Below are positions 52,460-60,527 of a stretch of DNA of 64,000 nt, piece by piece. A program made the position numbers and the translations under genes. Each line of letters starts with the position of its first letter. Position 1 is the stretch's first letter. Location of the stretch: positions 3,262,784 through 3,326,783 of the forward strand of contig CP084167.1 in assembly GCA_021513715.1 (NCBI GenBank), given 5' to 3'. The notes under the pieces are model-generated. The model was not told where the DNA came from. It was given only the letters and a program-made list of their open reading frames with translations, and ran no database searches. This stretch comes from Candidatus Heimdallarchaeum endolithica (GTDB lineage Archaea > Asgardarchaeota > Heimdallarchaeia > Heimdallarchaeales > Heimdallarchaeaceae).

Positions 52460-54586
52460 ATGACTAGAGACAGAAAAGAGACCGACATTACTAAATTCAA
52501 TAATGATGATACAAAAAATAGAAGTGGAAAGGAGCAAGTATTAGAAAAAGAAGAACCTCTTTTAGATATTTCATTCAATGATACTTCAGAAATTTCTGTT
52601 CCTCCGAGACTAATTGATCAAGTGATTGGTCAAGATGAAGCTGTTGAAATAATAAAAAAGGCTGCTTTGCAAAAAAGGCATATTATGCTCATTGGAGATC
52701 CTGGAACAGGAAAGAGTATGTTAGGTCAAGCAATGGCAGAACTTTTACCTAAAGAAGATCTTGTAGATATTCTCTGTTTACCTAATCCTAAATATCCTAA
52801 TCAACCTAGAATTGCTACCCTTCCAGCAGGACATGGAACAAGAAAAGTTCAAATGGATACTGAGTTGGCAAGAAAAAAAGGTAACAAAAGGTTTGTCGTT
52901 TCTTTAATTATTTTAATCGCAATAATTGGTTACGCTATTATTGCTACATCTTCTAGACCAGATTTACAACCTCAAACTCTTTTAATGGCAATGTTTGTAG
53001 GGTTCTTCATATTCTTCATGCTAAATCAATCAAGATCAAGACCAGAAGCACTAATACCAAAATTACTAGTGGATAATAGTAATAGTAAAAGAGCACCATT
53101 CAATGATGCAACAGGAAGCCACGCAGGAGCACTTCTTGGTGATGTACGTCACGATCCTTTTCAATCTTTCTTTTATACAAATAACTTATTGTTGAAATAT
53201 TCAAATAAATCGTTATATAAATCCTTTTCTGAGTTGGTGGATAAATTATTTATTGAAGAAGGTAGAATAGTTGAAAAAGATAAAAAAAGAAACTACGAGG
53301 CTGTGATATTAAAAAGAGGAGAACTAAAAGTACTATCAGATAATAATGGTAAACTTTCGTTTGTTAATGTTTTATCTGTAAACAGATATGATTATGATGG
53401 AAATTTAATCAAAATAACTACAGAGTGTGGAAAATCTATTATTACTACTCCAGAGCACAAGATAGCGATTATTGATGAAAATCAGGGGATTAAATATATT
53501 AAAGCTATAGATATTACTATGGACAATAAATTACTTTCAACTGATTCAGTTATTTTGGATGAAGAAGATATAATTAAGACATATCCAAAGAAACATCAAA
53601 AACAAGCTTTCTTATATAAACGTTATTTAGAAGTTAAAGAGCAACATCCTGATTGGGGTTATAAAAAAATAAGTTTATCTCTTTCACAAAAAGAGAGTAA
53701 ATGCAGATGGTGGCATAATGGAAAGCATTTACCAATCGCTATTAAAGCAGTAAATATGTTAAAAGAAAAAGGATTAATTCCATTGACATTACAAAATCCT
53801 AAATTACCTGTTATTAGTCGGGTTATAGGTAGCTTATTTGGTGATGGCGGAATATTCACAAATTTAAATGCAATATTTTTGTCTAGTAAAGAATTGGATT
53901 CAGTGAAAGAATTTGGAAAAGATTTAGCATGCATTTTTGGTGAAAATATTAGTCAAAACTCTAGAATTATTGAAGGAGGAGAAAAAGGTCATTCTTGGTG
54001 CTATCAGAACACTAATCGTTCAGTTATTCGCTTTTTCATGGCTTTAGGAGCACCAATAGGAAATAAAACAAAACTTGAATTTCATATTCCTGCTTGGATA
54101 TACTCCAATGAAGATTTACAAGATGAGTTTTTTGGATCTTATTTAGGTGGAGAGCTAGGTGTCCCAATAGTTCATAAGAAAGGACGATTTCTAAACACAC
54201 TAGATGTTGGGATCACAGCCGATGAACATACTTTTAATAATAGATACATGTTTTTGGAAGCAGTTCGAGATTATTTAAATTCAAAAGGAATAAAAACCAA
54301 TTCTATATCAAAAAGAAGTATAAAGGAAAATAAGTATCTTGTTCGACTTTTGATTTCGACTAAATATGAAAATCTTATGCAATTTACTAAAAATGTAAAA
54401 TTAAAATATTGTATGTATAAAACAGAAAAATTACTGAATACACTTGATGAGTTTACTTCAATTAAATACAATCGTTACAAAGAGCTTACTGAAAGTGATA
54501 TTGGAGCTGAAAGAGCAATGCAATTACTTAACTTATCTCCACGAGCTTTATACTATATTATCTCTCAAATGGAGGAGAAGGCATAA
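52460..54586 (+). CDS. lonB: Archaeal LonB protease N-terminal part (aa 1-235) fused to intein N-fragment with LAGLIDADG endonuclease
   Basis: LIDQVIGQ, Walker A GDPGTGKS, two TMs, [13 protein letters not shown] followed by intein. Confidence 0.93.
53165..54586 (+). mobile_element. Intein N-fragment (473 aa) with homing endonuclease
   Basis: Begins at Ser after DPFQ (known Lon intein site); block B TPEH; LAGLIDADG-like IGSLFGDGG and FGSYLGGEL; ends at a stop codon. Confidence 0.9.
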
Positions 54587-54702
54587 TGAAATACATACCA
54601 TCTAAAGTTAAAAATATAGAAAAAATTCCTTTCAAGGGCAAATTGTATAACATTACGACTGAGACAGGTACAGTTGTAGCTAATGATATTCTCTGTTCTA
54701 AC
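54586..54702 (+). mobile_element. Intein C-fragment (39 aa)
   Basis: [39 protein letters not shown] followed by +1 Ser (SGGLGTP): blocks F and G. Confidence 0.9.
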
Positions 54703-55968
54703 TCTGGTGGGTTAGGTACTCCTCCTCATGAAAGAGTAGAGGCTGGGTTAATTCATAAATCTCATAATGGCGTGTTATATATTGATGAGATTGGTACTTT
54801 AAAGATACAAACCCAACAAAAACTTCTTACAGCAATGCAAGATGGAAAGCTATCAATTACTGGTCAATCAGAGTTAAGTTCTGGTGCAATGGTTCGTTCT
54901 GAGCCTGTTCCTTGTAGATTTGTTTTAGTTGCTGCAGGAAATATTGAAACTACACGTAATATGCATCCTGCTCTTCGATCTCGTATTCAAGGTTCTGGTT
55001 ATGAAATTTATATGAGAGATACTATGCCTGATACAATTCAAAATCGTCGTAAATTAGCTCGTTTTGTTGCTCAAGAAATAGCTAAAGATAAAAAGATTCC
55101 CCATTTCAGCAAAGAAGCAGTAGAAGAAATTATTTATGAAGCACAAAGAAGAGCAGATAGAAAAGGATACTTGACTCTCCGTCTTCGAGAGCTTGGTGGT
55201 TTGATTCGTGCAGCAGGAGATCTAGCTAAAGAAAGAAATGAGGAAATTGTTTCTGCAGAAACAGTAAGGCTGGCTAAAACTTTTGCTAGGACTTTAGAAA
55301 ACCAAATAAGTGATAGCTATGCTGATAGAAGGAAACAATACAAAATTATAGAAATTGAGGGAGAAAGAGTAGGAAGAGTAAATGGATTAGCAGTAATCAA
55401 TCAACGCTCAGGAATAGTTATGCCAATAGAAGCAGAAGTTGTTCATGCATTCAGTCAGAGGGAAGGAAAAATTGTAGCAACAGGACAATTGAGAATAATA
55501 GCTAGAGAAGCAGTACAAAATGTATCTGCTATTTTAAAGAAGTTTATTGGAAAAGATATTTCAAACTTTGATTATCACATCCAATTTGTGGGCGCATATA
55601 GTGGCGTAGAAGGAGATTCTGCATCAATCTCGATAGCTACAGCTGTTATTTCAGCATCTGAGAAAGTTCCAGTTAGGCAAGATACAGCAATGACTGGAAG
55701 CTTAACAGTAAGAGGAGTTGTAATCCCTGTTGGAGGGGTAACAAGTAAAATTGAAGCAGCAGCAGAAGCAGGAATAAAAAGAGTAATTATTCCTAAACAG
55801 AATTTAGGTGATGTGAAAATAGAGAAAAAGTATCTAGACAAAATAAAAATTATACCAGTTGAACATTTCAGTGAAGTTCTGAGAGAAGCTTTTCCTCTAG
55901 AATATGAATATGTAGCTAAAAAGTATGAAACCTTAAATAAAGAAAAACCAATCAATGGTCTAAAATAA
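54586..55968 (+). CDS. lonB: Intein C-fragment plus LonB C-terminal part (Walker B, protease domain)
   Basis: [31 protein letters not shown], catalytic VEGDSAS and VTSKIEAA. Confidence 0.93.
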
Positions 55969-59066: not shown

Positions 59067-60527
59067 ATGATGGAGGACGTCGTCAAAACCTTGAAAATGA
59101 GAATAAAGAACGAGGTGTTGACGACGAGGAAGAAGGAAAGGTTAAGGAGAATAACGGGGAGAGATACAAAAATAATAGAGAAGTATGTGAGAATAATACA
59201 TCACAACAGAAGAAAGATATGTAGAAGAACAAAAAAAGGGAAAATAAGAGTGCATAGAGGAAAATTAGATAAACTGACGCTAACAACTTCAAAAGTTAAA
59301 GAAGAAGAGAAAAGAACAACTGTTCCTCACGATCTGAAGAAAATGTTCCCCTATTGTTCTCACAATGAATTCCAAGAGTGTAGAGATATAGCCGTGCAAC
59401 TATATGAGCAAGGGTATAGACCCCGTTCTACTCGTCCTCCAATAAAGAGAGCAAGAAGACAACTAATTAATGCAAAGAGGTTCATTCTCGTTCATCTACC
59501 TAAAGAGAAGGATAACACTCTCACTCGTTGGTGGGTGGGGATAAGAGACTCGTTAGATACGTGGAAAAGAAACACCCCTTACCACCAGAAACTATGGTTA
59601 CCTTTAGAGATGAGCACTTTCCACCAGAAAGAGTTAAAGAAAGGAAAAATAAAAAGTCTAGAACTAAGATATAAACGTTCTACACGTGAGTGGTGGGTGT
59701 ATTTCCAACTGAGAGTTCTTCCTTCTCCTTCTTTTTATCCTACTAAAGAGAAAAGTTCTTCTTCTCTTCCCCCAGCTGTGCTGGGAATAGATCTAGGGAT
59801 AAACATTCCTGCTACAGGAGTGCTTCTAACCCCTAAAAATAAATTAACAAACAAAGAGATAAAATTCTGGTATACCAAACAGTGGAATAAAGTCAATCAT
59901 CGATATAAACTCAAACTTTCCCGTCTTCAGAGGAAAGCAGCTTTAAACGACCAGTCGGGTAAAAAACACCAAATTTACCGTTTTCTCGGTCTTCTTCGAA
60001 AAAGATATAGAAACGTTAAACGGGCGTATATTCACCAATTTATAAACGACGTCGTGCAGATGATAGAGACCTATGCTCGAATGTATGACCTTTTCGTCGT
60101 CGTAGGTTACCCCAAAAATGTTAGAAAAGGAAAAGAAAAAGGGAAAGGTAAAAGTACTCGTTATTTTCGTAGAAAACTTTACCAGTGGAATTTTTCTTTA
60201 GTTCTTTCTCTTCTCCGTCGAGCATTGATATTAAGAGGTTTTGCTCCTCACCGCATTCTCACTTTAGACGAAAGAGGAACATCTTCCCACTGTTCTCGTT
60301 GTGGAAAAGAAGTTTCTCGTCCCGTCAGAGGATTAATACACTGTCCCTTTTGTAACTATACTTACCACTCTGATTTAACAGGAGCTAGAAATATTGCTCG
60401 TAAATTCCTTAGTCATCTTTTTCGTCCCCGTACTACAACTATTACTGATTATTTTACTGGTCAAAAGTTTAGTCTTACGCATTATACTGTTTGCCGAGGA
60501 CTCAGCCATTGGTTGCAGTCCCAGTAG
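59067..60527 (+). CDS. tnpB: TnpB RNA-guided endonuclease with rearranged RuvC-II
   Basis: RuvC-I LGIDLG (D242), VVVGYP (G347 in place of the canonical E), LDERGTS (E402), Zn finger CSRC..CPFC, RuvC-III HSDLTGARNI (D436). Confidence 0.9.
   Translation: MMEDVVKTLKMRIKNEVLTTRKKERLRRITGRDTKIIEKYVRIIHHNRRKICRRTKKGKIRVHRGKLDKLTLTTSKVKEEEKRTTVPHDLKKMFPYCSHNEFQECRDIAVQLYEQGYRPRSTRPPIKRARRQLINAKRFILVHLPKEKDNTLTRWWVGIRDSLDTWKRNTPYHQKLWLPLEMSTFHQKELKKGKIKSLELRYKRSTREWWVYFQLRVLPSPSFYPTKEKSSSSLPPAVLGIDLGINIPATGVLLTPKNKLTNKEIKFWYTKQWNKVNHRYKLKLSRLQRKAALNDQSGKKHQIYRFLGLLRKRYRNVKRAYIHQFINDVVQMIETYARMYDLFVVVGYPKNVRKGKEKGKGKSTRYFRRKLYQWNFSLVLSLLRRALILRGFAPHRILTLDERGTSSHCSRCGKEVSRPVRGLIHCPFCNYTYHSDLTGARNIARKFLSHLFRPRTTTITDYFTGQKFSLTHYTVCRGLSHWLQSQ

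Follow-up and report, generated by a model that had tools for sequence, protein, structure and literature searches.

How can a cell obtain an intact LonB protease when its lonB gene is laid out as two open reading frames (ORFs)? This question is raised by Candidatus Heimdallarchaeum endolithica, whose genome is one 3.33-Mb contig and from which a 64-kb stretch of DNA, hereafter the window, was analysed. Both ORFs lie on the + strand. ORF1 (52460..54586, 708 aa, TAA stop at 54584-86) encodes 235 aa of LonB (N-extein, 52460..53164), with the Walker A motif at 52694-52717 and, by inspection, two hydrophobic segments, up to the motif HDPFQ, and continues into 473 aa of intein with a Ser at its start. 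This intein part comprises an IntN splicing domain (53165..53548, ~128 aa, with Ser1 and the block B motif TPEH at 53447-53458), whose end was placed from the point where relatives with a free endonuclease stop (117-133 aa), and, fused to it, a LAGLIDADG homing endonuclease (53549..54583, ~345 aa) with a conserved helical C-terminal tail. The Shine-Dalgarno (SD) sequence GGAGGAG (54571..54577) lies within the last codons of ORF1 and precedes a TAATG stop/start overlap (54584..54588) of the kind found in translational coupling. ORF2 (54586-55968, 460 aa) encodes a 39-aa IntC (54586..54702), with blocks F and G, a CSN end and no His at F13 and G6, followed by the 421-aa LonB C-extein (54703..55968), which opens with SGGLGT, its first residue being Ser+1, and carries Walker B (54775-54789), the catalytic Ser (55618-20) and the catalytic Lys (55747-49). 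Upstream of its start, the frame of ORF2 is open to 54532 (18 codons). Re-reading of the window confirmed the two ORFs, the intein boundaries, the SD, the TAATG overlap and the open upstream frame of the initial annotation, together with a second TAATG, at 36178-82, which joins adjacent genes.

The encoded protein is an archaeal LonB, with an AAA+ domain bearing a membrane insert and a Ser-Lys protease domain, and matches TonLonB 3k1j with an E of 2e-164. The LonB profile TIGR00764 matches both ORFs, its positions 195-594 falling on ORF2, which by itself scores above the cut-off, and the intein N-terminal model TIGR01445 matches ORF1 at 267-335. Walker A is therefore carried by one ORF and Walker B by the other. 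The intein junction aligns with residue 217 of TonLonB chain 4zpx, and HDPFQ ends inside AAA+ pore loop-1, which spans residues 209-232 in TonLonB (PMC9569914). This split LonB is the only Lon_C match in each of two complete Heimdallarchaeum genomes; its C-extein is under strong purifying selection (dN/dS 0.01-0.06), and LonB is essential in Haloferax (PMC4343526). The genome also encodes an intein-free LonB paralog (L037:2224-3990; G000:C1 about 1113720-1115490) with neither a Ser-Lys dyad nor a Lon_C match, possibly an ATPase-only protein or a dead protease. Rescue by this paralog was rejected because it lacks the dyad. The only intact Lon of H. endolithica is the two-gene LonB, most likely joined after translation by a split intein.

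The genome was assembled from a metagenome and the loss of one base could join the two frames, so that the split might reflect an assembly error or a recent pseudogene. However, contigs from three independent metagenome studies (vent or sediment) cross the junction with 0 gaps, and a JGI contig (L118), 98% identical, carries the identical TAATG. The indel in 54532-54585 that the initial annotation had feared is absent from the independent contigs. Moreover, the split is common to more than 100 loci, and both halves are under purifying selection. Indel-free contigs and a split shared by relatives led us to reject an assembly error, and we grant this explanation as a whole practically no probability. 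The locus, treated at first as a single case, is real and belongs to a large archaeal family. The best 120 homologue clusters of ORF1 all measure 665-761 aa and end after one conserved tail. Of the 115 loci that could be classified, 78 show the window-type layout, 34 are composed of three ORFs (IntN, endonuclease and IntC) and 3 are contiguous; 45 contiguous proteins were added from a separate search, beyond these 115 loci.

The same collection bears on a second explanation, a programmed -1 frameshift or read-through that would yield one contiguous precursor and splicing in cis. The -1 frame at the Asgard junctions and at 60 of the 78 window-type loci, and the 18 open codons upstream of the ORF2 start, are compatible with such a scheme, but ATGA and TAATG overlaps produce a -1 frame by themselves. 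The two halves are separated by -11 to +657 nt in the 78 window-type loci, with frames distributed 60/9/9, so that 18 of the 78 loci sit in other frames, and in the three-ORF form the gaps reach 4 kb and contain foreign genes, some of them on the opposite strand. In addition, the ATG is constant at IntC position 1 across relatives, and an SD-like word precedes IntC in 42 of 57 closely coupled relatives, against a background of 16%. Halves in all three frames and gaps of up to 657 nt exclude a programmed frameshift for practical purposes, and we consider it only marginally more credible than an assembly error. The 16S tail of the genome contains CCUCC. The two ORFs would instead be translated separately from one presumed transcript, with translation of ORF2 re-initiating at TAATG with the help of the SD. 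A sigma-70 promoter/terminator scan, a model not suited to archaea, gave no excess over shuffles.

The window intein possesses the residues of a class 1 intein, namely Ser1, TPEH, the terminal Asn and Ser+1. These positions are maintained throughout the 112 split loci: only Ser, Thr or Cys is found as residue 1 (53/35/24), residues that account for 11% elsewhere, the terminal Asn and Ser+1 are each present in 112/112, and TxxH in 109/112, while the Lon catalytic Ser is kept in 102/102. No His occurs at F13 or G6 of the split Lon intein, and its block A is poorly conserved. In DnaE, Ser/Ala replaces the penultimate His, and the initial annotation had compared its absence here with DnaE. This is no special likeness, since contiguous Thermococcales Lon inteins likewise have neither His and end in KN; the feature came with the Lon intein allele. 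The Lon intein of Pyrococcus abyssi is reported to splice with Lys as its penultimate residue (O'Brien 2010). Assignment to class 3, defined by a Trp-Cys-Thr triplet (B12, F4, G5) and a non-nucleophilic residue 1 (PMC2807308), was rejected: B12 is Ile, F4 is Asn, G5 is Cys, Val or Ala, and residue 1 is always a nucleophile. Thr is found as residue 1 in 42 of the best 120 clusters, in 35/112 split loci and in some contiguous relatives, although no natural intein with Thr1 was known as of 2009 (PMC2807308). The splicing domain is cysteine-free in 25/112 split loci (L048, L163 and 23 free-endonuclease loci).

Structure predictions are consistent with a two-part splicing domain. The AlphaFold model of the intein (pLDDT 82) contains a HINT half and a LAGLIDADG domain; its best PDB matches are inteins, and the top fold matches are the TliVMA intein, PI-PfuI and I-DmoI. 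In a complex model, IntC docks on IntN residues 1-128 with a score of 0.75, against 0.00 for the best control, at a mark that is reached by 58/80 solved and 2/110 mismatched pairs; the runs share at least 87% of contacts, with a partner pLDDT of at least 73. This pass may reflect likeness to solved inteins, as the halves of a split fold can pass in this way. The IntC, described at first as Lys-rich, is only mildly basic: the window IntC has a charge of +3 and IntN, which is not acidic, of +2, so there is no strong charge complementarity between the halves. Across the family, the net charge of IntC is +4.8 in split forms versus -2.4 for the matching stretch in contiguous sisters.

Instead of being spliced, the halves might join non-covalently via the intein fragments. 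Such an assembly was reported for the fragmented NrdA of phage Aeh1 (PMC3045599), and it would fit the lack of both C-terminal catalytic His residues. Against it stand the four splicing positions, which are invariant or restricted to nucleophiles, and the fact that an unspliced 512-aa insert would occupy pore loop-1 of a hexameric unfoldase. We judge this scenario quite improbable. With separate ORFs, matching exteins and a layout conserved across genomes, the locus has the attributes of a naturally split intein, and trans-splicing of the LonB halves is most likely, being the simplest reading of the residues and comparisons. In the proposed pathway, IntC would complete the HINT fold of IntN, and, if the established class 1 mechanism applies to the residues observed, an ester formed at Ser1 would be taken over by Ser+1 and the terminal Asn would cyclise, releasing a 656-aa LonB with a restored pore loop-1.

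Is the endonuclease still a homing enzyme? The initial annotation had it still fused to IntN, and indeed we found a LAGLIDADG fold and two motifs, at 53825-53851 and 54128-54160, which retain the catalytic Asp and Glu; the Pfam LAGLIDADG models gave no match on the window protein. Asp227 is invariant and Glu330 at least 90% conserved, and the two catalytic motifs are retained in 73/78 and 70/78 window-type loci. The endonuclease dN/dS is 0.06-0.10 for DPANN pairs and 0.19 for the window, the comparison of the window with L118 holding too few changes to be informative. Two genome pairs shift in identity exactly at the intein boundaries, in opposite directions. Compared with Ca. Heimdallarchaeum aukensis PM71, a same-genus relative, the exteins are 97.9/96.9% identical, against 32% for IntN, 50% for the endonuclease and 46% for IntC. 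Compared with a more distant relative, the Heimdallarchaeaceae MAG L261, the pattern is reversed: identity at silent third positions is 78% for the intein but 55% for the exteins (Fisher p=1e-13), with 79% for IntN-endonuclease, 71% for IntC and 52-55% for both exteins and the upstream gene; dS is 0.35-0.6 in the intein versus 1.7 in the exteins. Several DPANN pairs go in the same direction, with inteins more alike than exteins at silent sites, these estimates coming from few pairs that are not mutually independent. No co-conversion of the flanks was seen in the genome-pair comparison. Because IntC travels with the cassette, the stop and restart belong to the copied DNA.

An alternative is that trans-splicing is real and the endonuclease no longer homes, being kept for folding or another role, with spread by gene transfer and loss. 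A structural role could likewise account for the stronger conservation of the endonuclease relative to the splicing domain, and the free-endonuclease form is limited to one host clade. However, whole-gene transfer would take the exteins too, contrary to the silent-site break located exactly at the intein boundaries in opposite directions; the catalytic motifs are mostly kept; and the endonuclease persists once detached from the intein. We regard this alternative as unlikely, though the least unlikely of those considered. The cassette rather appears to home while split, and the earlier suggestion that it may still do so gains support from the extein/intein identity contrast, the silent sites and the scatter of the split state. 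The freed IntN-endonuclease would cut intein-free lonB at the DPFQ/SGG codons, and repair would copy across all 1.5 kb of the cassette, its stop, SD and start among them, such that the invaded gene becomes two genes. Taken together, these data lead us to propose, with a probability of roughly 0.8, that the element is a mobile, naturally split class 1 intein of the archaeal Lon allele.

Where does it occur? Among 400 Asgard genomes searched, the split was found in 4 Heimdallarchaeaceae genomes, all of the window's family, and L261 is one further MAG of that family with a split intein; in the 35 remaining relatives that gave a match, lonB is intact and of intein-free length. About 75 mostly DPANN loci share the split layout, with Woesearchaeota, Nanoarchaeia, Parvarchaeota and Micrarchaeota as named hosts; many contigs titled 'uncultured Methanosarcinales' carry a LonB that groups with Woesearchaeota and were not counted as a host group of their own. 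In a sample of the class containing Woesearchaeota, ~12 of 150 lonB matches listed, a list that favours LonB near the query, have the split length, 3 hold a different contiguous intein and the rest are empty, so that intein-free target sites are plentiful. No copy was found among the viral contigs searched for relatives. The intein tree unites the split alleles in a single clade (100/100), but the split state requires 17 changes on the extein tree, at least 14 of which are forced by well-supported branches; for instance, L064 bears the split intein and its nearest neighbour, L014, is empty. This scatter on the host tree could be due in part to repeated loss via recombination with empty alleles. 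On the intein tree the partner of the window is L261 and that of H. aukensis is L064 (each pairing 100/100), against the host tree, which indicates at least two split lineages within the family. From this distribution, the donor of the Asgard split intein was likely a DPANN archaeon.

When the intein trees are rooted on the inteins of Thermococcales, Archaeoglobus and Nanobdella, contiguous inteins from Micrarchaeota-like archaea come out as the sister group of the split clade. Nested as it is among contiguous inteins, the split came from a contiguous intein already bearing an endonuclease; contiguous relatives, which the initial annotation had named as a danger to its reading, fall outside the single split clade, within which the split is conserved. 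The free-endonuclease form is one clade (98/98). Support for the fused form as one clade is 54/60 and 69/95 in two LG+G4 trees, and a quick mixture-model tree suggested that the free-endonuclease form is nested within the fused form. Parsimony favours the fused form first, with two breaks versus two breaks plus a fusion. The idea that the locus is an intermediate in split-intein evolution is therefore well supported for the passage from contiguous to split, while the order of the fused and free forms rests on parsimony. The window layout is seen again, with a different intein, at another LonB site: in one case this is the only split, and in two it is part of a three-piece LonB. The first-site intein of L259, for its part, sits by itself on a long branch. 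Together these observations imply that the break after the endonuclease probably happened more than once. In the account we prefer, the split would have arisen once from a contiguous endonuclease-bearing intein, spread among DPANN archaea and entered one Asgard family.

Several variants accompany these forms. In L258:3452-9101 and L259:3807-9067 (P0228, P0235), LonB is in three pieces with two different split inteins, the first at DPFQ/SGG and the second after RTEAVP, where IntN keeps its endonuclease and overlaps its IntC gene; L260:493-3911 (P0229) has the second split only. L249, L250 and L251 carry a different, contiguous 429-aa intein (Cys1, THN end) at the same DPFQ site, a competing allele. 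P0244 has an IntN with most of the endonuclease deleted and the C-terminal tail retained, and P0206, P0325 and P0342 possess, besides the split intein, a further contiguous one upstream, which in P0342 lies at Walker A. Small genes lie between IntN-endonuclease and IntC in L041, L059, L092, L093 and L098 (gaps of 220-315 nt) and also in L045 and L096; the inserts include a 50-76 aa ORF that turns up repeatedly and a 110-aa ORF rich in Cys, and those of L096 resemble genes for a DNA cytosine methyltransferase and a Vsr-like protein. Cargo genes may be carried by the cassette. Elsewhere in H. endolithica, weak tblastn matches to the endonuclease or intein halves (G000:C1 near 1674874, 1889676, 1998679 and 2464230) suggest further inteins, and a 486-aa ORF at 59067-60527 of the window has, by inspection, RuvC-like and zinc-finger motifs and is TnpB-like.

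The element shares traits with three known systems. Like the Lon split, cyanobacterial DnaE and Nanoarchaeum equitans Pol have the canonical split position and a short basic IntC, but they are mini-inteins lacking an endonuclease, and their halves are unlinked and descend vertically from one break. Contiguous archaeal Lon inteins (Thermococcus, Pyrococcus, Archaeoglobus, Nanobdella and Micrarchaeota) use the same DPFQ/SGG site, with a homologous endonuclease and a block F/G motif ending in KN or SN; they differ in being one polypeptide of 420-498 aa that splices in cis and whose last 39 residues are net acidic. Fractured genes (gp41-1, NrdJ-1, IMPDH-1) are also broken at the intein, with halves ordered at one locus, endonuclease coding sequence in between and an endonuclease end that overlaps the downstream start codon (Dassa et al. 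2009, PMC2677866). Their endonuclease, however, is a free-standing GIY-YIG or Vsr-like gene, mainly in phage, thought to have invaded a mini-intein (PMC2677866), a standard model restated in a 2025 review (PMC11766414). By contrast, the Lon split concerns a cellular archaeal gene with the intein's own LAGLIDADG fused in frame to IntN, a layout that is absent from every step of the Dassa model; its tree points to a contiguous bifunctional intein as the source of the split form, the opposite of that model. Ordered split-intein halves are present at the Lon locus as in fractured genes; a free-standing endonuclease is found in 34 related loci but not in the window and 77 others. Similarly, a naturally split intein has been worded as a mini-intein without an endonuclease domain (PMC4760082), at odds with the 345-aa LAGLIDADG domain fused to IntN here. 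In agreement with the initial annotation, which knew of no description, the open-access full text searched contained no account of a split Lon intein or of a natural IntN-fused endonuclease.

Beyond the window, we lean, by a narrow preference, towards a broader account in which a selfish element performs trans-splicing and homing at once and turns a housekeeping gene into two genes; in which a contiguous bifunctional intein was broken, a reversal of the accepted path to split inteins, and its endonuclease later freed; and which includes at least two transfers from DPANN to Asgard archaea, many Thr1 inteins and the three-piece LonB. For the three-piece LonB, this would mean that two orthogonal trans-splicing reactions act on a single protein, and the Lon split family offers more than 100 natural split pairs, whose cysteine-free members are candidate trans-splicing tools. 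The natural split inteins known so far are regarded as mini-inteins without mobility, whereas one Lon allele exists in contiguous, fused-split and free-split forms. With these three forms in cellular genomes, the origin of split inteins, and of gene fission that passes through no dead intermediate, becomes directly testable, and the family preserves a record of DNA transfer between DPANN and Asgard archaea.
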